Of a DNA stretch of 64,000 nt, positions 1,097 to 39,698 are shown piece by piece; position 1 is the first letter of the stretch; every line of letters starts with the position of its first letter. Origin of the DNA: an uncultured Gemmatimonadaceae bacterium (GTDB taxonomy: Bacteria; Gemmatimonadota; Gemmatimonadetes; Gemmatimonadales; Gemmatimonadaceae); assembly GCA_963740355.1 (NCBI GenBank), contig CAVUDW010000002.1:160001-224000 (forward strand). The letters run 5' to 3'. The position numbers and the translations under genes were made by a program. The notes beneath the pieces were generated by a model that was not told the origin of the DNA, searched no databases, and saw only the letters and a list, made by a program, of their open reading frames with translations.

Positions 1097-1108
1097 TTGC
1101 TGGCCCAT

Positions 1109-1154
1109 CGGCAGTCCATGCCGCCCGTTCGATCGCACTCGGCAGAGCATGCCG
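1109..1154. promoter_or_regulatory. Two perfect CGGCA-N5-TGCCG palindromes (candidate enhancer sites)
   Basis: CGGCAGTCCATGCCG at 1109-1123 and CGGCAGAGCATGCCG at 1140-1154, 31 bp apart, upstream of a sigma54 box. Confidence 0.6.
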
Positions 1155-1208
1155 TTCGAGGGTAACGAGCGGATTTCGTAAACGCATGTCGCAGAAGGCT
1201 TTAGCGAA

Positions 1209-1225
1209 CGGCATGGCCCGTGCTT
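1209..1225 (+). promoter_or_regulatory. Sigma54 -24/-12 promoter for the first asnB-like gene
   Basis: CGGCATGGCCCGTGCTT gives GG-N10-GC and matches TGGCAC-N5-TTGC. A 25-bp IHF-like dyad lies at 1179-1203. Confidence 0.7.
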
Positions 1226-1311
1226 TAGGGGGCATGTGGCGCCATGCGTTCCACAGGTGTGCCTTCAGCGTTTCGCTCGACCTTTCTCACTTCGCAACAC
1301 CCGACCATCCC

Positions 1312-3216: not shown

Positions 3217-3242
3217 CTTTGTGTACGCCGCGCCGCTCGCGA

Positions 3243-4880: not shown

Positions 4881-5893
4881 TTCACCAGCTGACCATCACG
4901 CGCCTGGTTCCAGCTGTAGGTCTGGATCGTGTCCTCGACAACCGGCTTCTCTTCCGAGAAGAGGTCGCGCAGGGCCTTGGTGTAGTCAGCGCCCCAGCGG
5001 ATCACTTTCCAGTCGGTGCAGCTGGCGCAGGTCGGATGCTTGAAGGTGCGATCGAGGTGGCTCTGGCGCAGCGCCTTGAAGGTCTCGGATTGCCAGATGG
5101 CCTGCAGCGAGCCCCCTTCGTCGAGTGTGGTGAGGGTCGTGTCCTTCATCCAGTCGTCGGGGCAGAAGCGCACGCGGCCGTCCCACGTGACCACCAGTCG
5201 CGTGAACACGACGAGGCAGGGCCAGCGGTTTTCGACTTCGCGCTCCTCGATGTTCTTCTTCGGCGTCAGGCCCTTCGTGTCGACGTAGTTGCGGATGATG
5301 ACCTTGTCCACAATCTGCGACCAGAAGGTGTTGAAAACTTCCAGCTCCTCGTTGCTCACTTCCGGCTGTTGCACGATGCTGACCATCACCTTCACGTTGT
5401 CGCGCTTCAGCTTGTCGCGCTGGAGCACGAACTCCATGATGTTGCGCATGATGCGGCGGTAGTCGCCACGGACGCGGATCTTCTCGTAGGTCTCGCGATA
5501 GAAGCCATCGAGGCTGATCTCAACCGAGACTTTCGTTTCCGACTCTCGCAGCAAGACCTCGGCGCGATCCCCTTCGAGGAACATGCCGTTGGTATTGAAG
5601 GCGAAGGTGTCGATGCCCTTGTCCTGCACGTACTCCACCTGCTCGACCCACGACTTGAGCAGCATCGGCTCGCCATCCGGCGTGATGCGGAGCGCAGCGT
5701 TGTGTTGTGCGACTTCGTCCACGACACGCTTCCAGAGCGCCATGTCGATGGTCTTCGCTTTGTAGCCGGGAATGGCCGCATGCACATCCGAGTGCGGGCA
5801 GTGAATGCACCGCAGGTTGCAGATGTTCGTCGTCTCGACGTGAACGATCGGCGGAAAGGATTCGTCTGCGGGCTTCAGGAAACCGAATGTCAT
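4877..5893 (-). CDS. Radical SAM protein with SPASM/twitch domain
   Basis: CNLRCIHC (CxxxCxxC), GEP, NTNG and ISLDG motifs; C-terminal WPC..DGRVRFC..CASC. ATGA overlap at the start. Confidence 0.88.
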   Translation of the reverse strand: MTFGFLKPADESFPPIVHVETTNICNLRCIHCPHSDVHAAIPGYKAKTIDMALWKRVVDEVAQHNAALRITPDGEPMLLKSWVEQVEYVQDKGIDTFAFNTNGMFLEGDRAEVLLRESETKVSVEISLDGFYRETYEKIRVRGDYRRIMRNIMEFVLQRDKLKRDNVKVMVSIVQQPEVSNEELEVFNTFWSQIVDKVIIRNYVDTKGLTPKKNIEEREVENRWPCLVVFTRLVVTWDGRVRFCPDDWMKDTTLTTLDEGGSLQAIWQSETFKALRQSHLDRTFKHPTCASCTDWKVIRWGADYTKALRDLFSEEKPVVEDTIQTYSWNQARDGQLVK

Positions 5894-7005
5894 TCGCCGG
5901 CGCTCGTGGGAGTGGGACTGGATGGGGTAGTGAACTGCTCGAACGGCATCACGTAGTGCCAGGGATAGCTGGCGCGGATCGTGTCCATCGGCACCTGCCG
6001 CAGGGTGGTGATGTCGCCAGTGATGCGGGTCAGATAGTGGTGCTGGCCTTCGAGCGAGCCCCACTTCTGCTTGAACTGGTAGACGCCCGAAGTGCGGGAG
6101 CTACTCGACTGCCAATTGAAGTATCGGTAGCCCGCGTCGCGGGCCCAGTCGAGCGCATCGACGATCAGCACGCTGGTCGCGAGCGTCTTGGTGGCGGCGG
6201 AACTGCCGCTGAGCATGAAACAGTCGAGCACATCGTGCTGGCCAACGAACATGCAGCCGGCGACGACGGTGTCGCCGTCGAGCACGTAACACATGGTGCC
6301 CTTGCCGGCACCGATGACCTGGGTGCGGATGGCATCGAGGAATGCGCGTGGCAGTCGTGCAGCACTGAGTTCGGTCATGCGCGAAGCGTGAATCGCATCC
6401 CAGGCGTCGAAGTGCTGGTCGCTGTCGGTGAAGACAGTCGTGAGCCCGAACTTCGCCTTCGCCTGCGCGGCCCGTTTCACGTACTTCGCGACGTCGAAGG
6501 GCTGCAGCGCGGCGTCCTGCGCCACGTCAGCAGCGAGATCGATGTACTGGTAGAAGTTCTCGCGCACGAAGTCAGGCGCGAAGTACTCCAGATAGAGCGG
6601 CAGGTCGGCGTAGAACGGCGGCGTCGCGATGGTCGCCAGAAGGCAGCCGCGACTCCTCGCCTCGTTCGTGAACGCATCGAGCAGTGCCTGGTAAATCTCG
6701 CTGCGCTGCGGATGCGCCGGATCGACCACCACGCCACCGTATCCGCCAGGCTGGGGTACCGATAGCAGCAGTGCACCGTGTGGGCCGCTGAACTCGTACG
6801 CCGGCAGGGCGCCGAGAACTCGACCGTCGTCGTCGCGCGCGAGGAAATAGACCGGGATGTCGCGCTGGTCGAAGGCGAGTGCTTCGCGCCATTCCCACGA
6901 ATGCTGCACCAGTGCCCCAGGGCATGACGCAATGAACCGCCGATATTCGGCGGCGCTGACGTCGGCGCTGACGTCGGTGCTGACGCGGATGCAGGCGCCG
7001 ATCAT
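5890..7005 (-). CDS. FemAB/GNAT-family acyl- or aminoacyl-transferase
   Basis: QHSWEW, PGGYGG, ALDWARDAGYRYFNW and GVYQFKQKWG resemble FemABX/Acetyltransf_6 proteins. Confidence 0.75.
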   Translation of the reverse strand: MIGACIRVSTDVSADVSAAEYRRFIASCPGALVQHSWEWREALAFDQRDIPVYFLARDDDGRVLGALPAYEFSGPHGALLLSVPQPGGYGGVVVDPAHPQRSEIYQALLDAFTNEARSRGCLLATIATPPFYADLPLYLEYFAPDFVRENFYQYIDLAADVAQDAALQPFDVAKYVKRAAQAKAKFGLTTVFTDSDQHFDAWDAIHASRMTELSAARLPRAFLDAIRTQVIGAGKGTMCYVLDGDTVVAGCMFVGQHDVLDCFMLSGSSAATKTLATSVLIVDALDWARDAGYRYFNWQSSSSRTSGVYQFKQKWGSLEGQHHYLTRITGDITTLRQVPMDTIRASYPWHYVMPFEQFTTPSSPTPTSAGE

Positions 7006-7006
7006 C

Positions 7007-8170
7007 TCAGGCCCCGACCGTGGCGTAAACGTCGTGCAGCGCACCCGCCACCTCGCGCACATCGTCGTCCGGCATACCGGCATAGAGCGGAATCGCGATC
7101 GACAGCGACTCGGCCAGCAGTGACTGCGGACAGGTGCTTGCGTCGAGGGCGTAGCGGCCAGCGTAGTAGGTCGTGTGCGGCACGGAGTGCGTGCCCTGAC
7201 GCGTGCCGATGCCACGCTGCTCGAGCGCGGTCATGATCGCATTGCGCTGCTCGTGCAGGCCGAGGCGATTGGCTTCGGTGGGCGCTTCGGGCGCAAAGAG
7301 GCAGACGTAAGACTGATAGCTGTGACCGACGCCGTCCCGCTGTGCAGGCAGACGCAACCAGTCACAGTCGGCCAGCAGCGTATCGTAGAGCGCAGCGCAG
7401 TGCCGACGGCTGGCGAGAATGGTCTCTGCCTTGGCCATCTGCGTGCAGCCGAGCGCACCCTGAATGTCGGTGAGGCGATAGTTGAAGCCGCCGATCGGGA
7501 AATCGGGGAGCATGAAGGGTGCTGATGGACCACTGGCGCGCACGGCACCGTGATCGCGCAGTGATCGGCAGCGACTGTCGATTGCCGCGCTGGCGGTGGT
7601 GATCATTCCCCCTTCGCCGGTCGTGATCGCCTTCCGCGGATGGAAGGAGAAGCAGCCGGCATCGCCGAAGCCCCCGACGTGTGTGCCATGCAGCGTGGTG
7701 CCGAACCCGCAGGCCGCGTCCTCGATCACGCGCAGGTCGTGCTTGCGGGCGATCGCCATGATGCGATCCATGTCGGCCGCGAAGCCGAACTGGTGCACCG
7801 GGAGAATGGCACGTGTGCGCGAGGTGATGCTGGCTTCGATCAGCTCGGGGTCGATCGTGAAGGTGTCGAGATCGATGTCCACGAAGACCGGCACGGCACC
7901 GGCCTGTTCGACGCTGTTGGCGGTCGCGATCCAGGTGAACGCAGGCACCAGCACTTCGTCACCAGCACCGATGCCGACCGCCTTCAATGCCATGTGCAGC
8001 GCCGTGGTGCAGGAGCTGGTGGCAACGCTGAATGGCTGACCCGTGAAGGTCGAGAAGCGCGACTCGAACTGTCGCACGTACTCGCCCTGCACGACCCAGC
8101 CCTTCTTCAACGGTTCAACGACGGCAGCGAAGTCGCTGTCGTCGAAGAACGTCTTCGAGATCGGAATCAC
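7007..8170 (-). CDS. DegT/DnrJ/EryC1/StrS PLP-dependent sugar aminotransferase
   Basis: [28 protein letters not shown] (PLP lysine) and GFNYRL. Confidence 0.93.
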
Positions 8171-9132
8171 GCCGCGATGGCGCGTTGCAGCGCGTAGTAC
8201 TCGGCGGTGCGAAGGATGCCTTCCTCAAGGTCGACTTCAGCGGTGAAGCCAAGTACGTCGGTGGCCTTCTGGGCGGCAGGGATGCGCAGTTCGATGTCGG
8301 CGTAGTCGCGGCGAATGAACTTGATCTTCGACTTCGAGTTCAGCACCCGGACGACGGCGTTGGCGAGGCCGTAGATCGTGGTGACCGCAATCGCATTGCC
8401 GATATTGAACGATTCGCCAATGGCTTCCGGCTGCTCGAGGCACATCATGAGGGCGCGCGTCATGTCATCGACGTAGCACCAGGCGCGAATCTGCGTGCCG
8501 TTGCCGTGAATCTCGATGTCCTCGTTGCGGATCGCCTTCTGGATGAACTTCATGATCGCGCCCTCGCCGACCTGACCTGGGCCGTAGACATTGAACGGCC
8601 GCACGGTGACGGTGGGGACGCCGAACTCCTTGTGATAGGAGTGCGTGAGATGTTCCGCGGCCAGCTTGCCGACCGCATACACCCAGCGCGCCTCGCCCAC
8701 GGCGCCGATCTCGCACTTGTCGCCTTCGCCGGAGTTGTAGGCACGGGAACCGAACACTTCCGAGGTCGAGAAGTCGAGGAAGCGACGACAATCCTTCAGC
8801 GTGCGACAGGCCTCGAGCACGTTGGCCGTGCCGATGAGGTTGACGCGGAGCGTCTTGGTCGGGCTGATGATGACGGTGTCGATGCCCGCGATGGCGGCAG
8901 CGTGCACCACGTAGTTCGCGCCTTCGATGGCCTTCTCGACGGCGGCTGCGTCCATCACGTCGCCGCGGATGCGCTTCAGGTTCCGGTGGCCTGCGAACGG
9001 CTTATGCTGCAGCGAGTCGCGCGAGAAGTTGTCGAAGATCGTGACTTCGTTCTTCTCGACGTAGTGGCCAGCCAGCGTTGAGCCGATGAATCCGGCTCCG
9101 CCCGTGATGAAGATCCTGGCGCCTTCGATCAT
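8167..9132 (-). CDS. NAD-dependent nucleotide-sugar epimerase/dehydratase (extended SDR)
   Basis: [21 protein letters not shown] (YxxxK) and RPFNVYGP. Start reassigned to MIEGAR. Confidence 0.92.
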
Positions 9133-9272
9133 GTGGTGCTCCACCCGGTGTTGAAAGAGTTGGTGCACCCGCCCCGCTCGGGATCCCCACACATCTGGTG
9201 GTAGAGCCGAGGCGGGACGGATGCAGCACAACGGGCGTCGCGAGGACACCTGCGCTGCACAGAGCATCGGAA

Positions 9273-9289
9273 AAGCAGCAACCGTGCCG
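9273..9289 (-). promoter_or_regulatory. Sigma54 -24/-12 promoter of the epimerase-aminotransferase operon
   Basis: Minus strand CGGCACGGTTGCTGCTT (GG-N10-GC). Dyad at 9295-9319; CGGCAGAGTTGGCCG at 9398-9412. Confidence 0.72.
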
Positions 9290-9575
9290 AACCGTAAAGC
9301 GTTGCCTCGCAATAGTTTAGCAAAATGGGCGGTGGTGCCGGCAGAGAAATATTTGCCGCTCGCGACCCGAATCGGCCGTTTGATGCCGACGGACACCCGG
9401 CAGAGTTGGCCGACCTGGGACTGCCTCTGCACACCCATCGCACACCCACTCAGCAGCCGGAAAAGACATCTGTTTAGTCGTGGCCAGTCGCGCCCGACAC
9501 TGGAGCCATGAACAGGTGTTCCGTCGCGGCCGTGACGGGCTGCCGTGGGTGGATCCAGTGTGGGGGAAAACGTCG

Positions 9576-10829
9576 ATGCGACTCGACCAGAAGTACCGTG
9601 TAGTGAGTCTCTGCGAGGATGATCGCGTGGATCGGCGCATCCTCGATGGCGCACGCATGTTGAGCGAAGAAGGCTGGCCTACGCTGGTGATTGCGGCGCC
9701 ACCACTGATCGACTTGCGCGACGAGGAGAGTTATCCCGACGTACCCATCTTTCGCATGCCGTCACAGTACGTGCCTGGCGGCGAGGTGCCGACTGGTACG
9801 CTGCCACACGAGGAGTTGATCAATTCACTGTTTCGGTGGAGTCGGCGGGTGACGGCGGCGGCCCTCGCCTTTCCCGCTGAGGTCTACATCGCAAACGATC
9901 TTCCGCAATTGGCGGCTGGAATCATCGCGGCGCGCACCTACGGCAGCACGTTGATCTACGACGCACACGAGTTCTTTCCCGCGCAGCCGTTTGTCAAGGA
10001 TCGCAGTGAGAAGCTCGAGACCATCGAACGCGACCTGATCCAGTACGCCCACGGCATCGTGACGGTCAACGACAGCATCGCCGACGTCATGACCATGCAC
10101 TACAAGTGCATGCGGCCGCACATCGTGCTCAATTGCCCGACGCGACGACACCAGAAGACGGCGATGGTCGATGACGGCCGGATGCGAAAGTTCCTCGGTA
10201 TCGCACCAAGCCAGCGCATCCTGCTCTATCAGGGCAATCTGACGGCCTTTCGCAATCTCGAGGAGATGATCGAGGGCATGACGATGGTGCAGTCCGATGA
10301 TGTGGTGCTTGCACTGATGGGCCGAGCCTCCGAATTCTCGGAAGGACTGCAGCGTCGTGCGTCGGAGCTTGGAGTGCTTGGACGTCGCGTGTTCTTCATT
10401 CCCGAGAAGTCGGCCGGCGAGTTGCTGGCGTGGACGGCGGGTGCCGATGCCGGGATCATTCCCTATCCGCACACCGACCTGAATACGCTCATGTGCACGC
10501 CGAACAAGCTCTACGAGTTCCTCGCGTCCGGACTGCCGATCCTTGCCTCGCATGGGACGGAACTGCGCCGCTTCGTCGGCGATCTGGGTGTCGGGCGGAA
10601 TGCGCATCTCCAGACGCCGCGCGACTTTGCGACAGCCATCGACGCCTTCATGGCCGGGCCACTGGACGTGTGGCGCGCACGCTCGATGGAGCTGTCGGCA
10701 CGATACACGTGGGAGACGGAAGGGCGCCTCTGGTTCGACATCATTCGGCAGGCGCAGGAAGTACACCGCGCCAAGCCGTGGCCGGCGCAGCAGGTTGCCG
10801 CTTCTACACTCGAGTTGGTGTCGGTCTGA
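9576..10829 (+). CDS. Glycosyltransferase family 4
   Basis: [21 protein letters not shown] and [15 protein letters not shown]. Confidence 0.88.
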
Positions 10830-12118
10830 TGCACACCACGATCACACCGGAGCGCACGATGAAGAACGGCGCGACAGGCTCCACGCCAGCCACCGCTCGA
10901 GCAGATGCCACCTCCGCACCGTCGACGGTGCCCATCGCACTCGACTGGCAAATTGGGATCGGCACGAGCGCGGAGTTGATGGCACTGCACCTCACCACAC
11001 AGCTTCAGGGAACGCCGGGTGCCCAGGTCGTCCCGTTCATCGGTCCGACGCTGCACCCGGACAAGCTGGCGCCGACGCTACGAGCCCGGGTGATCCGTGC
11101 GTTCGACATCGCCGCGGCAGAAGGACCACGGCTGGTGCGCGAATCACGGGGACAGTCGCTGCCGATGATCGCGTTGCACCTGCTCGGCCGTGGGCTGGGT
11201 GGTTTGCCGACACCGCTTCCGCTGCCGCCGCGTCGCAGCATCGGCATCGTGCAGACGTGCGACACCGCGTTCGATGACGCGTCACGCACGCGCGCGAGTG
11301 TGTGCGACGCGGTCCTGGCCGGATCCACCTGGATGCGCGAGCGCCTGGTGGATGCTGGCATCGCGAAGGTCGGCGTGTATCCGGTTGGCGTCGACACGAC
11401 GCTGTTCACGCCGGCGCCGAAGGCAGGCCACCTGTCACAGCGCTTCGTAATCTTCTCCGGCGGTCGGCTGCATCACCACAAGGGACAGGACATCGTGTTG
11501 GCGGCGGTGCGAACCTTCCGGAAGCGCCACCCGGAAACGTTGCTCCTTACCACCTGGCAGACGCCTTGGCCGGAGGCGATTGGTGACCTGACGTCGGCTG
11601 GACATGCCAAGAGTTCTCTCGACTACTACGGTGGCAAACTCGATGTGGTGAAGTGGTGTGCCGACAATGGATTACCCGCAGGTTCGGTGGTGGACCTCGG
11701 TGCACTCGATCAGGCGGCGCTGGCGGTCGTGTTGCGCGAGGCGGATGTGGCCCTGTTCCCGAATCGCGCCGAGACCGATGCCAATCCGATGCTGCTGGAG
11801 TGTTTCGCAAGCGGGGTGCCGGTGATCGCGTCCGCCAATACGGGTCATCTGGACGTTGTCTCGGCAGAGTACTGCTATCCGTTGACGGAGCAGAACGCGG
11901 TCCGAAGTGCAGCCGGCGGCGCGAGCACAATTGGTTGGGGTGAGTCGTCGGTAGATGAGATCGTGGCGCACCTGGAGGCGGTGTACACACGAACCAGCGA
12001 GGCCCGCGCGCGTGCGACTGCTGCGGCCACCTTTGCGAAGTCCTTCGGCTGGCAGGTGCACGCACCGCGGCTGTTGGAGCTTGTCGCACCGCTGATCCGC
12101 GACATCCAGGCGAACTGA
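10829..12118 (+). CDS. Glycosyltransferase family 4
   Basis: GVDTTLF, SGGRLHHHKGQD, ADVALFPNRAE and LECFASGVPVIAS. TGATG overlap with the previous gene. Confidence 0.85.
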   Translation: MHTTITPERTMKNGATGSTPATARADATSAPSTVPIALDWQIGIGTSAELMALHLTTQLQGTPGAQVVPFIGPTLHPDKLAPTLRARVIRAFDIAAAEGPRLVRESRGQSLPMIALHLLGRGLGGLPTPLPLPPRRSIGIVQTCDTAFDDASRTRASVCDAVLAGSTWMRERLVDAGIAKVGVYPVGVDTTLFTPAPKAGHLSQRFVIFSGGRLHHHKGQDIVLAAVRTFRKRHPETLLLTTWQTPWPEAIGDLTSAGHAKSSLDYYGGKLDVVKWCADNGLPAGSVVDLGALDQAALAVVLREADVALFPNRAETDANPMLLECFASGVPVIASANTGHLDVVSAEYCYPLTEQNAVRSAAGGASTIGWGESSVDEIVAHLEAVYTRTSEARARATAAATFAKSFGWQVHAPRLLELVAPLIRDIQAN

Positions 12119-12164
12119 CCTCCGTTGGCGTCAATCGGCGCCGCGGGGCCGCGCATGGTCCCGC

Positions 12165-13607
12165 TCAGGTGATGCTGCTGTTGACCTTCAGCGCCAGCGT
12201 GCGTGCCATTTCTGCGGCCTGCTTTCCGAGGCCGAGCGTCACGGCTAGCTGCGCGAAGCGATGTGCATCAGCCCACGCCTCCTCCCGGCCGAGCCGTTCC
12301 GCCATCAGGAGCGCCGAGATGGCATCGTGCTGGTGCGCCGGCAGGGAGTTCCACGGCACCTGTGGGAAGAGCAGCCGCTTGTCATAGCGCGCCCACATCT
12401 CGAGCACGATCCGGCGATGCGCGTCGGCGTAGGGATTGGTGCCACCGCCGAGTCCCATGTTGGCGCCGTGCCAGCGCCAGATGTAGCCGAGCCCGGGGTC
12501 GTGCTTGAACTTCGCACGCAACGCCAGGCGTGACCAGAGGTGGTAGTCATGCCCGCGCGGGAATCCCGCGTCATACCAGCCAGCACGTGCGTAGGCTCGC
12601 ATGCTGATGAGTGTACCGCCGTCCGTCATCACGTTGCGCTGGAAGAGCGTCGCCAGGAGTGCCTCGGGGCGATCGTACCAGTCCTCGCCGATGTTCTGAC
12701 TCACCGGATTGAGCGCGGCATCGCAGAGCAGCATGTCGCCGTGAATGACATCGGCATCCGGCACGCGCTCGAGCATCGTGACGCGGCTCGTCACGACTGA
12801 CGGCACCAGCAGGTCGTCGTCGCCGATCCAGATCACGAAGGGCGTGTCGATGGTCGCGAGCGCCTGATTGCGGTTGGCCGGCGCGCCACCGTGCTGGTTG
12901 GCGATCAGCCGCACGCCGTTCGTCGCATATCCCTTCACCACATCAACGCTACCGTCGGTGGACCCATCGTCCGTCACGATCACTCGGCAGTGCGGATAGT
13001 CCTGCGCGAGACAACTGACGATCGTCTCACGCAGAAATCCGGCGCGGTTGAACGACGGGATAATGAGCGAGACAGGTGGCGGCTCGAACGTGACGCGCGC
13101 ATCGGTTGCCGCCTCTACGACGGGCCTCGGATTGCGCTGAATACTTCCCGGCACGGCGCGTGTCGGTGTTTCGTGGGCCTGCAGCGCGAAGACGGTGTCC
13201 ACGAGCGCCGCAGCGTCGCGTACGCACCAGTCAGAGGGTCCGACCAGTGACGCGTGGGCGCTTCGAATGACGGGCAGGCCTGACGCCCGCACCACCTCGA
13301 CACAATGCGCGACGGCGCCATCGATCGGTCCGAGCACCACCACCACGCGGACACTCACCGGCATCGCCCAGGCGTCGAGACGGTCTCGGTCCACCGCATA
13401 CATCGCCACGCCGCTGGGCAGTGCGTCGTCTGACGTATCAGGGCCGAGCAGGACCGGCGCAAACTCCTCGCCGAAGCGACTGCCCCAGCCCAGCGATCCG
13501 ATGCACAACTCCACCAGCCAGGCGCGATCGTCGACACTCAGGCGCGGCCAGTCGGCGATGACGGCGACAGTGATTGCATCTGGCGCGGCCGACACATCAT
13601 GCAGCAT
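12165..13607 (-). CDS. Glycosyltransferase family 2 with an N-terminal extension
   Basis: VSLIIPSFNR, VTDDGSTD, ANRNQAL, IGDDD and GHDYHLW (GT-A fold). Confidence 0.85.
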   Translation of the reverse strand: MLHDVSAAPDAITVAVIADWPRLSVDDRAWLVELCIGSLGWGSRFGEEFAPVLLGPDTSDDALPSGVAMYAVDRDRLDAWAMPVSVRVVVVLGPIDGAVAHCVEVVRASGLPVIRSAHASLVGPSDWCVRDAAALVDTVFALQAHETPTRAVPGSIQRNPRPVVEAATDARVTFEPPPVSLIIPSFNRAGFLRETIVSCLAQDYPHCRVIVTDDGSTDGSVDVVKGYATNGVRLIANQHGGAPANRNQALATIDTPFVIWIGDDDLLVPSVVTSRVTMLERVPDADVIHGDMLLCDAALNPVSQNIGEDWYDRPEALLATLFQRNVMTDGGTLISMRAYARAGWYDAGFPRGHDYHLWSRLALRAKFKHDPGLGYIWRWHGANMGLGGGTNPYADAHRRIVLEMWARYDKRLLFPQVPWNSLPAHQHDAISALLMAERLGREEAWADAHRFAQLAVTLGLGKQAAEMARTLALKVNSSIT

Positions 13608-15318
13608 GCGCCCGTGCCTCCAGGTCGAGCGGGGCACGAGTGCCTTCGATGAACTGGCGGTGCCAGATCGTGAGGCTGACCAGCGCGCACAACTGCGAGA
13701 GCTGCGGCCATTCCTCGTAGCGCCAGGGGCCGGCGTTCATGCGTGCGCCAAACTCACGGGCGAGGCGCGGGCCATCGAAATACGGATTCTGTTGCCAGAA
13801 CGGGAGCATCATCGTGGCGCGGAGCAGCGGACCAAGCGAACCGTTTGCCCACTCGATCAGCGGCGCGTTGAAGCCGACCTTGCTGCGCCGGAGACGCACG
13901 CGTTCCGGCACCAGGTCGCGGATCGCATCGCGCAGGACACGCTTTGTGAATCCGCCACCGAGCTTGGCATCAGGAGGCAGTGCGCGCGCGAACGTCACCA
14001 GCCGCCAATCGAGCAGCGGCATCCGCGACTCGATCCCGTGCGCCATCGTGGCCCGATCAAAGTTGCGCAGGATGCCGGGCAGTACGTCACGCGTGATCTG
14101 CCCATCGAGGTACGCATTCAGTTCGCGACGCGGCACGCGCAGGTGCGGCGTGTACCCGCCGAGTACCTCGTCGCCGCCATGGCCGTCGAGCGTGACACGT
14201 ACACCAGTGCTGGAGATCGCACGATTGAGGAGCCAGACCGGTGTGGCCGCGATACCAGCCGCGGATTCCGATGACCAGATGCTCTCGAGTGCCGCATCGG
14301 TGGCCTGCGCCGCGTCGAAGGCGATGTAGTGCGCCTCTGCGCGGACATAGTCCGCCACGGCGCGTGCATGCGCTGTCTCGTCGAGTGCGCTCCCAGGTGC
14401 CGTGCTGACGAAGGCATGACGCCAGTCGCTGGCGGACCGCTGCAAGTCGCTGCTCGTGCCGGCGTGGAGTGAAGCCATCACGCCCGCGACGGCGCTGGAA
14501 TCGATACCGCCGCTGAGGCAGGTGCCGACAGGCACGTCGCTGCGCAAGCGGAGGCGCACCGCATCGAACAGCAGGTCGCGGAACTGTGCCACCTGATCGT
14601 CGTACCGCGCGGGTGCCGCGATCAGATGTGCATCAGGATTCCACCAGCGCGTGATGCCTCCCTTGCCGCCCGCATCCAGCTGTAGCAGATGGCCGACCGG
14701 GAGCTGTACGATGCCCGCGAGCAGCGTCTCCATCTCGGTGCCTTCGATGCGCCCCGCATCCTGCAGCGTGAGCCGGAAGATGCGTTCGTTGAGCGAAGGC
14801 GCAGCGTCAGCCAGCGTGAGGAATGCCTTCAGCTCGGACGCAAAGGCGAGGCGCTTTCCGGCTTGCAGGTAGAGTGGCTTCACGCCGAAGCGATCGCGGG
14901 CGAGGATGAACCGCCGCGCGGCAGGTTCCCAGGCAGCGATTGCGAACATGCCGTTGAACCGGTCCAGCGCCGACACCCCCCAGTGCAGCAATGCGGCCGC
15001 TACGACCTCGGTGTCACCAGTGCCGCGGAAGGCGTAGCCTGCCTGCTGCAGCTCGGCGCGCAGTTCGAGGAAGTTGTACACCTCGCCGTTGTAGGTGACG
15101 ACGATGGTGCGACCATCCGGTGCGCGCTGCGTGAGTGGGCAGCTGCCGGCATCCGAGGTATCGAGAATCGCAAGGCGGCGATGGCCAAGGCCGATTTCGC
15201 CGTCGACGAAACAGCCCGACCCATCGGGGCCGCGGTGGGTGAGCGCGTCGGTGAAGCGACGGAGTTCGTCGGGATCAACCGGCGCGCCACCGAAGGCGAA
15301 GCCTGCAATGCCACACAT
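13597..15318 (-). CDS. asnB: Second asparagine synthase (glutamine-hydrolysing) family amidotransferase
   Basis: MCGIAG, HRGPDG, YNGEVYN, LSGGIDSS, GGDEVLGGY and RMPLLD. Confidence 0.9.
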   Translation of the reverse strand: MCGIAGFAFGGAPVDPDELRRFTDALTHRGPDGSGCFVDGEIGLGHRRLAILDTSDAGSCPLTQRAPDGRTIVVTYNGEVYNFLELRAELQQAGYAFRGTGDTEVVAAALLHWGVSALDRFNGMFAIAAWEPAARRFILARDRFGVKPLYLQAGKRLAFASELKAFLTLADAAPSLNERIFRLTLQDAGRIEGTEMETLLAGIVQLPVGHLLQLDAGGKGGITRWWNPDAHLIAAPARYDDQVAQFRDLLFDAVRLRLRSDVPVGTCLSGGIDSSAVAGVMASLHAGTSSDLQRSASDWRHAFVSTAPGSALDETAHARAVADYVRAEAHYIAFDAAQATDAALESIWSSESAAGIAATPVWLLNRAISSTGVRVTLDGHGGDEVLGGYTPHLRVPRRELNAYLDGQITRDVLPGILRNFDRATMAHGIESRMPLLDWRLVTFARALPPDAKLGGGFTKRVLRDAIRDLVPERVRLRRSKVGFNAPLIEWANGSLGPLLRATMMLPFWQQNPYFDGPRLAREFGARMNAGPWRYEEWPQLSQLCALVSLTIWHRQFIEGTRAPLDLEARAHAA

Positions 15319-17680: not shown

Positions 17681-18052
17681 TCAGGGGAACCGGACGGGTG
17701 ACGCGAGCGGCGTGGCGGAGAGGTCGGGTACTGCGGGGGTCGGCACAACCGTCGGCGTGTCCATTCCAGCTTTCTGTCGCAAGGCGCGGTAGATCGCGTC
17801 TCCCAGCCCGCGATGCCACCGCGTACCAGTATCGGCGGCCATGCGCTCATCCATGAGTCCGGAGAAGATTTCCTCCCCCTGGCTCTTGTCGACGATGGCG
17901 CCGTCGGTTGGGACGGTTTCGCGCATCGACTTGTAGAGCTGCTGGACGAAGAGGCCCTCGAGATCCTTGGCCGCCTTTCGCATCGCGGCTTCACGCGGAT
18001 CGACGCTCACAGGCGCCAGGCCTGCAACACCGGAAACAGATGGCGTCGTCAT
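17681..18052 (-). CDS. flgJ: Rod-binding protein FlgJ (rod-cap domain only, no muramidase)
   Basis: AAKDLEGLFVQQLYKSMR..IFSGLMDERMA..GLGDAIYRAL; only 123 aa. Confidence 0.85.
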   Translation of the reverse strand: MTTPSVSGVAGLAPVSVDPREAAMRKAAKDLEGLFVQQLYKSMRETVPTDGAIVDKSQGEEIFSGLMDERMAADTGTRWHRGLGDAIYRALRQKAGMDTPTVVPTPAVPDLSATPLASPVRFP

Positions 18053-22074: not shown

Positions 22075-22231
22075 AAATGTCATGATCGGCTAATTCGTTT
22101 TAGGACAACGACTTATAAGAATTATCAGCTCTCGCTGTTGCGTTGGTGGCTGGGCAATTCATGCCGGTCTCGTGGAAGGGAGTGCCGACTACATCCCCGT
22201 TGGGGCTGTTTCAGGTCGCTTTGAAATTTTC

Positions 22232-22305
22232 TCCCAATTTCCATCGAGTTAGGATTCCTGCTGAAAGTGTGGAATTAATTCCTAATTTAGTAGAAATTAG
22301 GAGTT
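22232..22305. promoter_or_regulatory. AT-rich tandem inverted-repeat operators upstream of fic
   Basis: TCCTAATTT-N5-AAATTAGGA at 22280-22302 is perfect; TCCCAATTT-N5-GAGTTAGGA at 22232-22254 is degenerate. Confidence 0.55.
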
Positions 22306-22346
22306 GGCTGGGAGCAATCGTACCACGCATCGCATCACTGACGAAC

Positions 22347-23717
22347 ATGAAGCTGCCCGTCCCACCGCCGGATTTCAGGACATTGCTCCGCGCGGTGTTC
22401 ACGCGGACAACTGGCTCGGCGCAGTTCGACGATTTGATGAGTCTGCGCCTTTCGGCCGCGCCCGAAGGCAAATACCGGCACTGGGATACCTTCCGGCACA
22501 CAACAGACGTCGCGGGATTTCCGGCCGACGAGCGTTGGCTCGCGGTCAAGTTCGCGCGTCGCGCGATGTACCGGACGCTCCCACTGCACGATGTGAGTGG
22601 CCGACCATTCCAGTACGCCCTGGCTAACCCCGTCCTGGAGATGCTGCACCAGATCGACCGGAACGCCGGTGGCAACATTCAAGGCAGTGAGCAGGTCACG
22701 AATCCCTCCACCCGGGATACCTACCTGTTCAAGTCGGTTCTGGAGGAGGCGATCACTTCGAGCCAGCTCGAAGGCGCGTCCACGACACGCAAGGTCGCGA
22801 AAGCGATGATTCAGGAGGCACGGGCACCTCGTAGTCGCAGCGAGCGGATGATCCTGAACAACTATCATGGGATGTTGTTCATACGCGACTACATCACGCA
22901 GCCGCTGACACCGGCCATCGTGCTCGAATTGCAGCGCTGTCTGACGGATGGGACGCTTGATGAGCCTGACGCCGCAGGACGCTTCCGGCGACAGGACGAG
23001 CACATCGTTGTCGAGGACGACACAGGAACCCGTCTCCACACCCCGCCTGACGCGAGCGAGCTTGCGGATCGTCTGCAGGCGATGTGCGACTTTGCCAACG
23101 GATCGCCACAGGACGAGTTCACTCCTCCCGCAGTGCGGGCGATCCTGCTCCACTTCTGGCTGGCGTACGACCACCCATTCGTAGACGGCAATGGCCGCAC
23201 GGCGCGAGCACTCTTTTACTGGGCGATGGCGCGTTCGGGATACTGGCTCTGCGAATACGTCTCGATCTCACGGATCCTTCGGAAAGCACGAGCGCAGTAC
23301 GCGCGCTCATTCTTGTACACGGAAACAGATGACAATGACGTCACCTATTTCCTGCTCTACCAAATGCGCGTGCTGCTCCGGGCGATTGCTGACCTCCATG
23401 AGTTCCTTGCGCGGAAAGCGACTGAGATTCAGGAAGCCGAGGAGATCGTGAGGCGCGCGTCATCCGTGAACTCGGAGCTGAATCCGCGGCAGCTTGCCTT
23501 GATCAATCATGCTCTGAAAACATCGACTGCGCGGTACACGGTCGAGTCGCATAGAATCTCTCACGGCGTGAGTTACGAGACGGCGCGCAGCGACCTGCTC
23601 AAGCTCGTCGGGCTGCGTCTGCTGGTGAAGCGGAAGGCGGGAAAGGCATTTGTGTTCTCGCCGGCAGCGGAATTGCGCGAGCTGCTGCCGGACGAACGCG
23701 AGACTCGTCTCTCCTGA
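22347..23717 (+). CDS. Fic-domain protein with C-terminal HTH-like region
   Basis: Canonical HPFVDGNGRTAR motif, SSQLEG inhibitory-type helix, and C-terminal VSYETARSDLLKLV. Confidence 0.92.
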   Translation: MKLPVPPPDFRTLLRAVFTRTTGSAQFDDLMSLRLSAAPEGKYRHWDTFRHTTDVAGFPADERWLAVKFARRAMYRTLPLHDVSGRPFQYALANPVLEMLHQIDRNAGGNIQGSEQVTNPSTRDTYLFKSVLEEAITSSQLEGASTTRKVAKAMIQEARAPRSRSERMILNNYHGMLFIRDYITQPLTPAIVLELQRCLTDGTLDEPDAAGRFRRQDEHIVVEDDTGTRLHTPPDASELADRLQAMCDFANGSPQDEFTPPAVRAILLHFWLAYDHPFVDGNGRTARALFYWAMARSGYWLCEYVSISRILRKARAQYARSFLYTETDDNDVTYFLLYQMRVLLRAIADLHEFLARKATEIQEAEEIVRRASSVNSELNPRQLALINHALKTSTARYTVESHRISHGVSYETARSDLLKLVGLRLLVKRKAGKAFVFSPAAELRELLPDERETRLS

Positions 23718-30332: not shown

Positions 30333-31136
30333 CTACTTCACGCCTGACAGCATGGGACCGATGTACCGGTTCAGCATCTCGTCGTGATACGACGTCCAGC
30401 CGGTGAACCAGACGGCGGTGAGGCTGAGCGCGGCGGCGAGGGTGAAGAGACCGGCAACGATCTGCAGTGGGAAGGCGACGGTGATGATCTGCAGCTGCGG
30501 AGCCGCGCGCGTCAGGATTGCGAGCGAGACGTTGGTCAGCATCGTGGCCGCCATCACGGGCGCGGAGAACATCACGCCGAGTGAAATCAACTGGCCACCC
30601 ATCTTCGACATCGCCAGCATGCCGGCGCTGAGATCGGGCACGGTGCCGATCGGGATCACATCGAGCGAGGTGCCAAGGCTGTTGATCATGACCAGATGCC
30701 CGCCGCTGGAGAACAGCAGCAGGGTGACGAAGGCCGTCATGAACTGACCGAGCACCGGCACCTGGATGTTCGTCATCGGATCGAGCACACTGGCGCCGGC
30801 GAGGCCCATCTGCACCGACATCAGGTCGCCGGATGCCGATGCAGCGCCCAGCACCAGCGCCGTGCCGAGCCCAAGGCCGAAGCCGACGAGTGTCTCGCTG
30901 AACAGCGTCAACGGCGTCAGGATCGGTAGCGAGTGCGCGTGTGCACGTGCCACCGGAACCAGCACCACCGAAAACAACACCAGGATCGCGGTACGAAGCT
31001 TCATCGGCACCGACTTCGAGGTGAAGACCGGTGCGATCAGCAGCAGTCCACCGATGCGCGCGGCGAGCAGGATGAACGAGGCGGCGCCGGCGGAAGTCAG
31101 CAGGTCCGGAATGGCCGCCGTGACGGCGGAATTCAC
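30333..31136 (-). CDS. fliR: Flagellar export protein FliR
   Basis: ARIGG..APVF, QMGL..LDP, GGHL and RAAPQLQI..FPL. The GTG start overlaps the fliP stop. Confidence 0.93.
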   Translation of the reverse strand: MNSAVTAAIPDLLTSAGAASFILLAARIGGLLLIAPVFTSKSVPMKLRTAILVLFSVVLVPVARAHAHSLPILTPLTLFSETLVGFGLGLGTALVLGAASASGDLMSVQMGLAGASVLDPMTNIQVPVLGQFMTAFVTLLLFSSGGHLVMINSLGTSLDVIPIGTVPDLSAGMLAMSKMGGQLISLGVMFSAPVMAATMLTNVSLAILTRAAPQLQIITVAFPLQIVAGLFTLAAALSLTAVWFTGWTSYHDEMLNRYIGPMLSGVK

Positions 31137-32686
31137 CGGAAGCTCTGCACGAGGCCCGTGACGACCAGCCCCCACCCATCGACCAGCACGAACAACAGCA
31201 GCTTGAATGGCAGCGAGATCATGGCTGGCGGCAACATCACCATGCCCATGCTCATCAGCACCGAGCCGACGACGACGTCGATCACGATGAACGGCAGGAA
31301 GAGTGCGAAGCCGATCTGGAACGAGGTGCGCAGCTCGCTGGTGACGAAGGCGCTCATCAGGATCGTGAGCGGCACGGCTTCACGTGACTCGGGCTGCTTG
31401 ATATCCGCGAGGTCGACGAAGGTCTGCAGGTCCTGGTCGCGCACCTGTCGCAGCATGAATGCCTTGAACGGCACCACCGCGCGCGACATCATCTCGACCT
31501 GCTCGATCTTGCCATCCATCCACGGTTCGAGCGCGTTCGTGTTGACGTCCTTGAGCGTCGGGCCCATCACGAAGCCGCTCAGCAACAACGCCATCGCGGC
31601 CAGCAACTGCCCTGGTGGTGCGGACTGTGTGCCCAGTGCCTGCTTGAGGAAATGCAGCACGATGAGGATGCGCGTGAAGCCCGTCATCATCAGCAGCAAC
31701 ACGGGGAGCATCGAGAGCAGGCCCATCATGACCACGACACCAACTGTGCCGCTCATGCGGAGCCCTTCGCCTGCACCGCCGCCGCCGATCTTGAGGTCCA
31801 TCTGTGGCGCCAGCTTGGCGATCATGCTGTCAGCACGCCCTGCGATGCGCTGTGCTTCCTGTGTGGTGAGCGGGCCATTGCCTTCGGCGCGCTTCTGCAG
31901 TGCGGCGATGTCTCGCGCCTGCGGGGCCGGCATCAGCGGAGAAATCGTGGCTTCGCCACCGCTCTTCGATCCGGTGGCTGCTGGCTTCGACGGACTCGGC
32001 GCCTGCACCTGCGGATCGATGCGCTTGGGCAGATCGCGCGGGCCTGGCTGCGGTGCGGCCGGCGGCAGGGTGCGAATGCCGGGTTGTGTGTTCGCCTGTG
32101 TATTGGGAGCCGTCGTCGGCCCGGTGGTGCGCGCGGGCGTGGCAGTGGTTGGCGCCGGGCGTGCCGGTGCCTGTTGTGCGGACAGCGTGGTGGCACCGAT
32201 CGCGCCAAGCATCACGATCAGTGCGCGAAGCACCGAACCGCGAAGTGCATCGCCGAGCACCTTTCGGAAGCTGGAACCGATGGTCACGTCACTTGGCGTT
32301 TCGCGCGCGTCACCGAAGATGCTCGAGGCGGCGATGCCGGGGAATTGGAGCGAGCCGTTGGATGACACGCCGACCTGCTGCTCGTGCTGCGCATGCTCGA
32401 CATCGACTGCGTCGACGGTCGCGTCGGTTGACTGCGCGGGCATCGTGAACAAGGTGCGCACGCCACCATCACCGACACTGACGCCGATCAACAGGTCGCC
32501 GCGCTGTACGATGGCGATGCCCTGTCGTTGACCGAGCGGAATACGCTGCACCACGGAGAACGCCTCGTTGCCTGCTGCGCGCGTCGCGCCCGGCATGAAT
32601 CGCTTCGCGAGCTTGGCGACCAGCAGCACCAGGCCGAGCACGAAGGCCAGCGTGGCGAGCATGCCGAGGTACCCGGCAACCGTCAT
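31133..32686 (-). CDS. fliP: Fused FliO-FliP export protein
   Basis: N-terminal ~80 aa is FliO-like (TM, then VVQRIPLGQRQGIAIVQ). C-terminus is FliP (FTRILIVL..ALGTQSAPP, AFVTSELRTSFQIGF, PFKLLLFVLVDGW). Confidence 0.9.
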   Translation of the reverse strand: MTVAGYLGMLATLAFVLGLVLLVAKLAKRFMPGATRAAGNEAFSVVQRIPLGQRQGIAIVQRGDLLIGVSVGDGGVRTLFTMPAQSTDATVDAVDVEHAQHEQQVGVSSNGSLQFPGIAASSIFGDARETPSDVTIGSSFRKVLGDALRGSVLRALIVMLGAIGATTLSAQQAPARPAPTTATPARTTGPTTAPNTQANTQPGIRTLPPAAPQPGPRDLPKRIDPQVQAPSPSKPAATGSKSGGEATISPLMPAPQARDIAALQKRAEGNGPLTTQEAQRIAGRADSMIAKLAPQMDLKIGGGGAGEGLRMSGTVGVVVMMGLLSMLPVLLLMMTGFTRILIVLHFLKQALGTQSAPPGQLLAAMALLLSGFVMGPTLKDVNTNALEPWMDGKIEQVEMMSRAVVPFKAFMLRQVRDQDLQTFVDLADIKQPESREAVPLTILMSAFVTSELRTSFQIGFALFLPFIVIDVVVGSVLMSMGMVMLPPAMISLPFKLLLFVLVDGWGLVVTGLVQSFR

Positions 32687-36825: not shown

Positions 36826-37497
36826 CTACTTGGTGCTGACTTCGGTGACGGACGTGAGCGGGATGTAGAGGCGGCCGACCACGTACTGCAAACCATCGGC
36901 GGTGGACTGCACACCGGTCACGGTGCCGCGCACGGAGGTGGTGTAGTCCACGGCCTTCGTCGCATCCGACGACACGACCGAGACGCGATACACACCCGGC
37001 GGCAGTTCCTTGAGCGCCTGGCCGACGACGATGTTGTTGTCACCGCTGGCAAGGGAACCCATGTTCTTCGATGCCACGATCGAGCCGGTCTTCGGGTCGT
37101 AGACATTGAGCGTGGCCGGTCCGCCAAGGCCGCTCACCGTCAGCGTTTCGTTGCCGCTGCCATCGAGTTGCAACAGGTCGCTCCTGGCCGTGACCACGCG
37201 ACCGATGTTGCTGCTCATCGCACCCGCGGCGACCTGTGAGATCAGTGCGGCCTGCGACGACGACTGCGCACTCAACGTCTCGTTGATGTTCGTGAGCTGT
37301 TCGACGCTCGAGAACTGCGCCAGCTGCGCGGCCATCTGGCTGCTGTCAGCCGGATTCTGGGGATCCTGGTTCTTCAGCTGCGCGACCAGCAGTTTGAGGA
37401 AGGCATCCTTGCCGAGTGAGTTCTTCGAGTTCATGGCCGACAGTACGCCGGCAGAATTCGACGCGGTGGTGCTGGTACTCGATCCGACGGTACTCAT
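36826..37497 (-). CDS. flgD: Hook capping protein
   Basis: [30 protein letters not shown]. Confidence 0.95.
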
Positions 37498-39698
37498 CGA
37501 CGATCCTCCGGCTGCTCGCGGCGCGAGCGTTGACGCGCGTCGTCGGTCGACGGGCGCGGTGTGTGACGTGAGTGATCACGCGCGAACGCTTCGCGCTGTG
37601 CCTGGTCACGTGATGACTGATCGCGCGTGTTGCCCTGGGACTGGGCGTCGGCAGCGGCGCGCATGGCGGCCAGCTCGAGGCTCGGTGCCGAGGCGCGCGA
37701 GAAGGTGGCGGTGTCGGTATTGCGGGTGGCGGTGGTGGCCTGCACGCGCACACCATCGGCGGTCAGTCCACGACGCTCGAGCGCTTCGCGCAATTCACCG
37801 AGTCGATCGGTGAGTGCGGCGGCCTGCTGTGCGTTGCCGAGTCCCAGGCGCGCGTCGACCGACGTGCCGCGGGTATCGATGCGGATCTGGTCCTCGATGC
37901 CGTTCGCGTTGTCCATGCGCAGCAACACGCTGCTGAGCGGCTTGGCGGCCTGCGTCGCCTGCAAGTCCATCAGCTGCGAGATCCGATCGGCCATGTTGAC
38001 CGCCGACGCTGGCGTGACTACGCGCATCGAGCCCGCGAGATCGGTGGCACCGGCCATCGGCGCCGGTCCGCTGACGGCCAGCGGCGAGATCGCGTCGTTG
38101 CCGGAGTTGCCAGCGCGTGCGGACTCGCCGGGTCGCGCGACGTCGGCAACCTTCGCGACGGACGACACCGTGGCGACGCGCGCGACCTGCGCTACGTTCG
38201 CCACCCGGGCCATCGCCGACGCGCGAGACTCGGCATCAGCACCAGCGTTCACATCGGCGCGCATCTGGCGCGCAGGATCGCCGGCTTCACCCTGCAGGTC
38301 ACTCAGCAGGTTGCCCAGTGTCTCACCTGACACGCCGCCTTCCACCGGCAATTCCACGTGGCCTGGATCGCGTGCACCCAGCGTGCGCAGGCCTTCCTGC
38401 TTTGCCAATTCGGCGAGACGTGCGTAGCCGGCTGGATTCTGCCACTGTCCATCGACCACCAGGTCAGCGGCCAGTCCCTTGCCATGCTTGGAATTCTTCG
38501 TCCAGGTCACCACTGGGCCGGGCGCCGTACGCCCCTGCGCAAAGAGCGCGTCCTGGCGTGCCTGTGAGCGCACCGTCTCGACGATCGCGACGGTGTGCCC
38601 GAACTCCTGGCGCATGCGATCCATCACGCGCTCGAGACGATCGCGGAACTCGGGGTCGAGCCTGGCGACATCGCGTTCCACGCTAGCGGCATCGGCGTTG
38701 CGCATGGTCGTGGTGGGCTTGGTCGGGGCGGAGCCGGTCGAGGCAGTGCTGGCCGGCGCTCCGCCTGCGGTCGTCGATGCACTTGGCGTGGCCGCCGCTG
38801 CATTCGACGTGGTCGAGTCGGTTGCAGGCTGCGCAGCTGCGCCGCTGACATCGGCCTGCGGTGCACCGGCTGCTGATGCCGGCGCGTCGAAGTGATCTTC
38901 GACCAGCGCGGTCGCATCGTTCGAAGCCACCGTAGCAGCTGAAGCAGATGCAGCCAGACCTGACGCGACAGAGGTGCGCGCTGCGGCATCCATGACATCG
39001 GCGCCCAAAGCAACATCCGCACTATTGCTCGTTGACACCGTCTTCGGCTCGGCGGCATTCTCGGGGGCGTCGGCCAGCTCAACCTGCGCTGCAACCAATG
39101 GCAGCGTCGCCACCAGCTGCATCGCCGCCGCAGTCGCGGCATTCGTCATCGCACTGTCGACCATCGGCACGACGTCGGTGGTCGCGGCCTGTTCCTCGAC
39201 TGAAGCACTCACCAGATCCGGCATCGACTGCGCAGCCGAAACATCCAGCGCGACGGCAACCGGCGGAGCACTCTCCGAAGTCTCGCCAGCGACCGGCGCG
39301 GTGGTCGAGGCAGCATTGAGCGTCGGCGCGACACATGCAGCCGTCACGGCCGGAACGTTGGCGTCTTCAACACTGGCGCCTGACAACTCTGAAGCAGGCT
39401 GCGACGCCACGACATCAGCCGGCACCTGCGTCACCGCAGGCGCATCGTTGCGTGTGGCTGCAAATCGCATCGCGCCGTTGAGGAGCGCTGATTGCACATG
39501 CGCACGCTGCTGCTGCGACGCGAGTCGGGCCTTGTTCGCTGCATACTCTGCCGACGACGCGCGGGTGTCATCAGCGCGTGCCGATGCCAGCGACGTAGCA
39601 AACGTTCCTGCGTTATCACTCGCCTGGCGATCTGGCGTGTTGTTCGAGACATCCGTGCGCGCACGCGGCGGCTGCACGGTGACGGGAAGCAGGCTCAT
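37494..39698 (-). CDS. fliK: Hook-length control protein FliK-like with an internal M15 peptidase domain
   Basis: Sits between the motE-like gene and flgD; long Ala/Pro/Ser/Thr-rich N-terminus; C-terminal FliK-type fold ([28 protein letters not shown]); internal RS..RQ..L..QGRT..SKH..GLAAD..DPGHVEL. Confidence 0.75.

Follow-up and report, generated by a model that had tools for sequence, protein, structure and literature searches.

How does the flagellar rod get through the peptidoglycan when the rod cap protein FlgJ carries no wall-degrading enzyme? This question is raised by a flagellar gene cluster from an uncultured Gemmatimonadaceae bacterium, located in a stretch of 64,000 nucleotides (the window) at positions 160,001 to 224,000 of contig CAVUDW010000002.1 (assembly GCA_963740355.1). 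In the window, the place of fliK, the gene for the hook-length ruler, is taken by a gene for a 734 amino acid (aa) protein in which a zinc peptidase domain of family M15 lies between the presumed ruler and the switch domain (FliK-M15). We consider it probable that the inserted domain serves as an efficiency factor in the passage of the rod through the wall, without being indispensable.

Judged from the order of the neighbouring flagellar genes, the 734-aa gene lies at the exact fliK position of such operons, and the order fliJ, MgtE_N-like gene, fliK-M15, flgD, flgE was the same in relatives. An AlphaFold2 model built on 32 homologs contained three confident parts, namely a helix at residues 49-83 and two domains at about residues 341-450 and 570-655, whereas the predicted local distance difference test score (pLDDT) of the remainder was below 50. 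Within the last of these parts Pfam Flg_hook (PF02120) matched residues 604-657 with E 1.2e-4 and 22.3 bits, under the cut-off of 29.8 bits, and the same family was matched by 25 of the 32 aligned homologs (E<=0.01, best E 9e-11). Residues 589-655 of the model were similar to the C-terminal domain of FliK (FliK-C; 2rrl, Foldseek E 4.9e-3), and VIA superimposed the FliK-C model on the switch domain of PscP (5cuk) over 64 residues with Z 6.7 and a root-mean-square deviation of 2.6. By gene position and predicted fold the protein is a member of the FliK/T3S4 family. A genome-wide Flg_hook search (5 contigs, 94.5% complete) gave no other credible match; a second, diverged fliK was considered and set aside, as the sole other signal in the genome had E 0.89, in agreement with an earlier note on this DNA that had counted on there being no separate canonical fliK. 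That the gene encodes the only FliK of the cell, a secreted hook-length ruler and substrate-specificity switch, is the best explanation.

Residues 1-335, presumed to comprise the export signal and the ruler, had a pLDDT below 50 for the most part and 78-86 in the helix 49-83, and F33 was invariant in the alignment of the 32 homologs. The linker that precedes FliK-C varied from 107 to 317 aa across these homologs, and the alignment showed that the tail ends in a conserved R-x-R-S-R-R-E-Q motif. Nearly all homologs also had a conserved (V-A-x)n repeat with a period of three residues in the linker (approximately residues 493-524, nucleotides (nt) 38127-38222), which ends in ARPG and was predicted by AlphaFold2, with low confidence, to be partly helical.

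The LAS/M15 motif consists of H-x6-D ... H, set inside S-x-H-x-x-G-x-A-x-D, and a distal D/E-x-x-H. In the central domain of the 734-aa protein we read S403-K-H405-G-K-G-L-A-A-D412 (that is, S-x-H-x-x-G-x-A-x-D) and D444-P-G-H447, and from this motif together with the alignment to 2vo9 we take H405, D412 and H447 to be the zinc triad and D444 to be the catalytic acid. Searched against the PDB with phmmer, the domain matched the L-Ala-D-Glu peptidase of the phage endolysin Ply500 (2vo9, E 2.4e-7) and LysB4 (6akv, E 7.4e-7). The six best Foldseek matches of the model were all L-Ala-D-Glu peptidases (Ply500, LysECD7, LysB4, RB49, ChiX and T5; best 6e-7, probability 1.00), and VIA gave Z 9.8 (2vo9), 9.7 (6akv), 9.1 (5opz) and 9.1 (8q2g) over 101-106 residues, compared to Z 7-8.4 for other proteins of the LAS fold, such as LD-/DD-carboxypeptidases and Hedgehog N-domains. 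By motif, predicted fold and PDB-level sequence similarity the central domain is a member of the M15/LAS clan. Its residues indicate that it is apparently catalytically competent, most likely as an L-Ala-D-Glu endopeptidase, which would strip peptide stems and so remove cross-links. The earlier note had proposed a gene in the fliK position with a FliK-type C-terminus and an embedded M15 peptidase domain. The open reading frame (ORF) and synteny agree with the first of these claims, the T3S4 fold seen with Foldseek (2rrl) and VIA (5cuk) bears out the second, and motif, PDB phmmer, Foldseek and VIA concur on the third; the coordinates that it gave for the two domains were right to about 10-60 nt.

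The fusion was not confined to this genome. Relatives in GTDB species genomes were found in 221 stretches, and all counts given over 80 loci refer to the best 80 of these 221, which were tested with one profile for the M15 part and another for FliK-C. Both domains stood in one open frame at 77 loci, the other three being cut by contig ends. An assembly chimera was rejected on the strength of these 77 independent species loci, and some of the fusion-bearing genomes are complete single-contig assemblies. By their labels 76 of the best 80 loci were of Gemmatimonadota type, three were called only 'bacterium' and one was a 3.5-kb contig in a Chloroflexales-labelled bin. With the domain as query, a word-indexed protein search returned 512 proteins (403-1285 aa); those with a name all came from Gemmatimonadota and were called 'M15 family metallopeptidase' or 'FliK'. 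When 1.84 billion representatives were searched exhaustively, 365 clusters (50% identity) matched at E<=1e-30, most of them 430-860 aa long. The top row of this search, P0189 (7287 aa, 36 stretches), was dropped, as it was a translated tandem repeat without the peptidase motif.

Conservation was strongest in the enzyme part. The positions H405, D412, D444 and H447 read HDDH at 79 of the 80 loci, and R377, S403, H405, D412, D444, H447 and E449 were invariant in 32 of 32 homologs; positions 381-390 were invariant too, which is partly circular as the search pattern spanned them. The mean pairwise identity among the 32 homologs was 68% in the M15 part (minimum 56%), 49% in FliK-C, 33% in the linker and 22% in the N region, so that the M15 part is the best-conserved region of the protein. 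The enzyme part is under purifying selection, and the FliK-M15 fusion is stable and widespread in Gemmatimonadota. Both the conservation of the zinc ligands in the homologs (32 of 32 aligned, 79 of 80 loci) and that of the fusion, which is common in the phylum, had been put up for test in the earlier note, which had also remarked on two features of the window. The first was a FlgJ of 123 aa with the rod-cap domain only; Pfam found Rod-binding alone in this protein, which is the only Rod-binding match of the genome and holds no glucosaminidase, SLT or M23 domain. The second was the lack of a lytic transglycosylase in the window, where indeed no match to SLT, SLT_2, glucosaminidase or M23 was found. 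The whole genome gave no match to the glucosaminidase family; it has three SLT genes, one SLT_2 gene and four M23 genes, all outside the window and the nearest about 280 kb away, and the FliK insert is its only copy of this type of M15.

The distribution of the fusion was determined in an even sample of 201 genomes of the phylum, in which four unpublished genomes were included that were positive for no feature. FlhA was found in 54 genomes and a Rod-binding FlgJ in 55. With a query that spanned M15 and FliK-C, both parts were present in one frame in 19 genomes. These were G000 and 16 more from family f1, together with a single genome each from f4 and f7; nothing beyond short M15-like frames turned up in three genomes that lack FlhA. 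Family f10, which belongs to another class, was flagellated in 13 of 13 genomes and had the fusion in none. Its FlgJ joins Rod-binding to an SLT lytic transglycosylase (FlgJ-SLT), as confirmed with Pfam in both of the two that were inspected; the full-length match lay in one frame in 12 of the 13, the copy in G032 being interrupted by a TGA. Outside f10 there was no full-length FlgJ-SLT among the best 150 of 372 matches; all of these 150 that lie outside f10 cover the SLT part only. FlgJ fusions were called by domain content, because the length of the open frame overstates FlgJ: in G027, for example, a 464-aa frame overlaps flgI and the real FlgJ ORF has at most about 110 aa. Among the 54 FlhA-positive genomes FliK-M15 (19 genomes) and FlgJ-SLT (13 genomes) never co-occurred. 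The two inspected FlgJ-SLT proteins of f10 (292-297 aa; L089:784-1662(-) and L090:835-1728(+), from G002 and G008) carry SLT and not the enterobacterial-type glucosaminidase, and each of these genomes has in addition a small paralogous SLT gene that is about 50-57% identical to the SLT part of FlgJ.

A tree of FlhA from 52 of the 54 genomes was rooted on f10; G186, whose FlhA is truncated by a contig end, and G032, whose FlhA is in three pieces with stops, were left out. It fell into three clades, which were f10 with FlgJ-SLT (support 100), f2 with neither enzyme (99) and f1, f4 and f7 with FliK-M15 (91). The M15 state needs two changes on this tree and is compatible with a single origin, and the absence from f2 may reflect loss or a domain that was never gained. 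The three flagellar states of the phylum, in which the ruler, the rod cap or neither of them carries an enzyme, are new here. The same tree separates f1 from f2, a family of its own order, and joins it to f4 and f7 from other orders. The taxonomy codes disagree with this grouping, which may be due to horizontal transfer of a whole flagellar cluster carrying FliK-M15.

The mutual exclusivity of FliK-M15 and FlgJ-SLT points to the same job as that of the FlgJ enzyme. In the mechanism that we favour, FliK would be exported as an early (rod/hook-class) substrate, unfolded and N-terminus first, by the flagellar type III apparatus at a time when the rod is still within the periplasm. The peptidase domain would emerge at the rod tip, refold, bind zinc and cut the peptidoglycan locally, and the widened mesh would let the rod with its enzyme-less FlgJ cap pass more efficiently. 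Once the outer membrane has been crossed, FliK would go to the medium and serve as a ruler only. We infer the export, refolding, activity, bond specificity and site of action in part from Salmonella.

Several results weigh against a role of the domain in rod passage. In family f2, which is of the same order as the genome of the window, an M15 match was found in 0 of 21 flagellated genomes, so the rods of close relatives cross the wall without the domain. In the three f2 FliKs that were inspected (548-625 aa) FliK-C was clear (E 1e-12 to 3e-15), and M15 left no trace even with all filters off. The cluster of one f2 genome (G165) is syntenic with that of the window and encodes a FlgJ of 97 aa, and no Pfam wall hydrolase was found among the 20 ORFs scanned in it. 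Within f1, G089 has a 645-aa FliK with a match to FliK-C only and without M15, even though the tree nests this genome in the M15 clade as the sister of one that bears M15 (support 95). In G140 the M15 part has decayed (E 3e-14 to the domain profile): H405 and D412 are replaced and D-x-x-H is gone. One of the 80 loci (L055) has a Q at position 405 and is the sole departure from HDDH. The unlinked SLT genes of the genome could do the wall-opening job. As to the domain itself, the matches to Peptidase_M15_4/VanY and Flg_hook that had been predicted beforehand were obtained, but all of them under the cut-offs: VanY (PF02557) scored 15.1 bits (cut-off 25; E 0.02), M15_3 (PF08291) 14.6 bits (23.2; E 0.038) and M15_4 (PF13539) 12.7 bits (25; E 0.2). 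The NCBIfam search of the 734-aa protein gave no match, and the loop before the last histidine is shorter than in stand-alone relatives such as P0165, which reads '...GLVWGGRWKTPDEPH'. Finally, a dedicated wall enzyme need not exist: PMC13584718 states that in Salmonella the hydrolase of FlgJ 'enhances, but is not required', and that Bacillus does without a dedicated one. An expected co-occurrence with a short FlgJ was upheld in part, in that FliK-M15 was never found with FlgJ-SLT (19 versus 13 genomes), and failed in part, in that f2 has a short FlgJ and no M15, G089 lacks the domain and that of G140 is decayed. Since f2, G089 and G140 are without an intact M15, the enzyme looks helpful but dispensable, and this dispensability in the phylum, together with the statement in PMC13584718, is why we read M15 as an efficiency factor. 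With regard to G089, its FliK (L092:420-2357(+)) was found to be Ser/Asn/Thr-rich and of a composition unlike that of its relatives, though by FlhA its sister is a genome that bears M15, and the middle of its fliK may have been replaced.

It is conceivable, though we doubt it, that the peptidase works with FliK still threaded through the nascent rod and is in this way tethered at the site of wall opening. The N-terminal ruler part and M15 would then already be out and folded at the rod tip, while the linker (107 aa or more in each of the 32 homologs) would span the channel with FliK-C still at the export gate. If this were true, FliK would be a cutter that positions itself and ties the opening of the wall to the growth of the rod, and since it would go on to measure the hook it would be a two-stage assembly tool and not a pure ruler.

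An active peptidase with a job other than rod passage is unlikely. Such an enzyme might remodel the peptidoglycan round the finished basal body (P-ring/stator anchoring), trim stems as a carboxypeptidase or, after release of FliK, act outside the cell on the walls of neighbours or on wall fragments. That Salmonella FliK is mostly extracellular after the hook has crossed the outer membrane is general knowledge and is also found in PMC13344023. The conserved catalytic residues would fit these jobs as well, flagellar clusters persist without the domain (loss in G089, absence from f2), and LdcB, DacB and VanY, which are LD-/DD-carboxypeptidases, reached Z 7.5-8.4, about 1.4 to 2.3 under the top endopeptidase (9.8). 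However, the best sequence and fold matches were all L-Ala-D-Glu endopeptidases and not carboxypeptidases, and the mutual exclusivity with FlgJ-SLT suggests the job of the FlgJ enzyme. For bulk extracellular lysis FliK would be a poor vehicle, as it is scarce and, from what is generally known of Salmonella, made only in hook-basal-body assembly.

We regard it as improbable that wall passage is achieved by unlinked lytic transglycosylases or free of enzymes, with M15 as a nearly neutral passenger that was acquired once by domain shuffling. A neutral insert would not be expected to hold 68% mean identity and intact ligands over 365 clusters (50% identity), and decay as in G140 would be the rule, yet it was seen in one of 20 in the clade. 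These observations have to be set against the three SLT genes and one SLT_2 gene of the genome, the f2 clade and G089 that manage without the insert, an FlhA tree that fits a single origin with 2 changes and the Salmonella and Bacillus results, as given in PMC13584718. Very unlikely is retention of the domain for a non-catalytic reason, be it as a folded 'knot' that slows export and times the FliK-C/FlhB switch, as a contribution to ruler length or as a peptidoglycan-binding anchor: M15 does lie between ruler and switch domain in every homolog with a linker of at least 107 aa before FliK-C, the decayed copy of G140 is retained as a recognisable module (E 3e-14) and in Salmonella switching becomes more likely when FliK is secreted more slowly (PMC13344023), but a spacer or pause would not need D444, R377, Q382 and S403 to be invariant alongside the metal ligands, no part of the protein is more conserved than M15 and the f2 FliKs switch without it.

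With FliK of Salmonella/E. coli and with YscP/PscP the 734-aa protein shares the operon position, a disordered N-terminal region (here the presumed ruler), the fold of the switch domain, the basic disordered tail and the single copy. It differs in that a zinc peptidase of about 110 aa and a linker of about 115 aa are inserted before the switch domain, and in that Flg_hook stays below the cut-off for this copy. To our knowledge, canonical FliK has no enzyme domain.

With the M15C peptidases (Ply500, LysB4, the T5/RB49 endolysins, LysECD7, CwlK and Serratia ChiX, the last name being taken from the PDB title 5opz) the inserted domain has in common the H/D/H zinc triad and D-x-x-H. The wall peptidase ChiX serves in the release of proteins from the cell. 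The M15C peptidases are free-standing (115-190 aa) or modules of endolysins, whereas this domain is embedded in a type III secretion system (T3SS) ruler, has no W-G-G-x-W loop ahead of its last histidine and remains under the Pfam M15 thresholds. Its nearest stand-alone relatives, proteins of 115-190 aa that contain PF13539 and of which several are named CwlK-type L-Ala-D-Glu endopeptidase, were matched by the domain with E 3.5e-11 and weaker, and a gap in bit score from 95 to 61 separated the fusion fragments above it from the stand-alone M15 proteins below. A protein on a metagenome contig of 1989 bp (P0154, 318 aa) combines a membrane anchor, a FliK-type M15 (54% identity) that shares the shortened loop before the last histidine, and Peptidase_M23. 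From this architecture the FliK-type M15 module occurs outside FliK too, and P0154 is, as predicted from its domains, a wall-hydrolase setting for a relative of it.

The lytic transglycosylases SltF of Rhodobacter sphaeroides and LTase BB0259 of Borrelia burgdorferi belong to a type of enzyme with Sec-type export. Single-domain FlgJ interacts with these separate enzymes, according to PMC8517470. As in our cluster, FlgJ there is without an enzyme domain and the wall enzyme is on another polypeptide; the enzymes there are transglycosylases of the SLT family, while the candidate here, an M15 peptidase, is built covalently into a T3SS substrate. The dual-domain FlgJ of beta/gamma-proteobacteria, a rod cap with a C-terminal glucosaminidase that is exported by the T3SS, likewise has its wall enzyme on an early export substrate, and the same export route of the FlgJ enzyme domain is the classical precedent (PMC8517470). 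In both systems the enzyme looks helpful and not essential (for FlgJ, PMC13584718). In our case the carrier is the ruler and not the rod cap, FlgJ being cap only, and the enzyme would be a metallopeptidase on the peptide stem in place of a glycosidase on the glycan strand; a fusion like the dual-domain one, FlgJ-SLT, exists in another class of the same phylum. An engineered FliK-beta-lactamase of Salmonella was exported to the periplasm during rod and hook assembly and was active there (PMC13344023). It is a laboratory analogue of our proposal, although artificial, an end fusion in place of an insertion and not directed at the wall. A full-text literature search, which did not cover subscription journals, found no description of a FliK-M15 fusion. 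FliK-M15 would follow the principle of dual-domain FlgJ, with a wall enzyme on an early type III substrate, but with another carrier and another chemistry.

The features described above are collected in the table.

Features of the fliK-M15 locus and of related genes in the window (coordinates in nt of the window)
Feature	Position	Strand	Remarks
fliK-M15 gene	37494..39698	(-)	734-aa ORF, ATG start; fliK slot; only Flg_hook candidate of the genome
N-terminal region, residues 1-335	38694..39698	(-)	mostly disordered, Ala/Thr/Ser-rich, low-complexity
M15C-type zinc peptidase domain, residues ~345-452 (predicted)	38343..38666	(-)	PDB phmmer, Foldseek, VIA, motif
M15 key codons R377; H405; D412	38568-38570; 38484-38486; 38463-38465	(-)	codons checked
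M15 key codons D444; H447	38367-38369; 38358-38360	(-)	codons checked
Linker, residues 453-567	37998..38342	(-)	low pLDDT except predicted helix 475-502
FliK C-terminal (T3S4, substrate-specificity switch) domain, residues 568-657	37728..37997	(-)	pLDDT 87-92
C-terminal tail, residues 658-734 and stop codon	37494..37727	(-)	basic, disordered, low pLDDT
flgD (hook cap)	36826..37497	(-)	Pfam FlgD E 1.1e-22; directly downstream of fliK-M15, 4-nt overlap
MgtE_N-like gene, 212 aa	39695..40333	(-)	Pfam MgtE_N E 2e-5; directly upstream of fliK-M15
flgJ, 123 aa, rod-binding (rod cap) domain only	17681..18052	(-)	Pfam Rod-binding E 3.8e-10, residues 41-89

A Pfam scan of the neighbouring ORFs showed that the minus-strand cluster comprises flgC, fliE, fliF, fliG, fliH, fliI and fliJ; the MgtE_N-like gene, fliK-M15, flgD, flgE, fliL, fliM and fliN; fliO/P, fliR, flhB, flhA, flhF and a sigma factor gene; and flgF/G, flgA, flgH, flgI, flgJ, a FlgN-like gene, flgK and csrA. 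Homologs of the MgtE_N-like gene are at the equivalent position in other genomes, which is where ylxF stands in the Bacillus fla/che operon. One 517-aa ORF (31133-32686, minus strand) holds both FliO (residues 26-97) and FliP (residues 320-512) with no stop between them, and G165 has a 429-aa ORF at the matching position; the single ORF may be a real FliO-FliP fusion or result from a mis-set start. A 524-aa Fic/DOC ORF (E 2.6e-16; 22143-23717, plus strand) is found on the opposite strand between flgF and the sigma factor gene, and minus-strand ORFs without family matches overlap it. Adjoining flgK and csrA, positions 20-15318 of the window hold a block of sugar- or amide-modifying genes, with two asparagine-synthase-like amidotransferases, a radical SAM/SPASM protein, a DegT-type aminotransferase, an epimerase/dehydratase, a GNAT protein and several glycosyltransferases, one of them with TPR. 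This block looks like a flagellin or surface glycosylation island.

The passage of the rod through the peptidoglycan is under re-examination, and the FlgJ enzyme is described as helping without being required in PMC13584718. On nearly identical clusters the phylum offers a natural three-way comparison between an enzyme on the ruler, an enzyme on the cap and no dedicated enzyme, and it also supplies natural cases of loss and decay. For annotation, the finding means that curated hidden Markov model libraries miss the M15 domain and that the names in public records switch between 'M15 family metallopeptidase' and 'FliK'. FliK-M15 would be the first natural catalytic domain inside a type III secretion ruler. 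It would give a peptidase route, and not a glycosidase route, to the opening of the wall, and would test whether a folded zinc enzyme fits in a ruler without disturbing the measurement of length.

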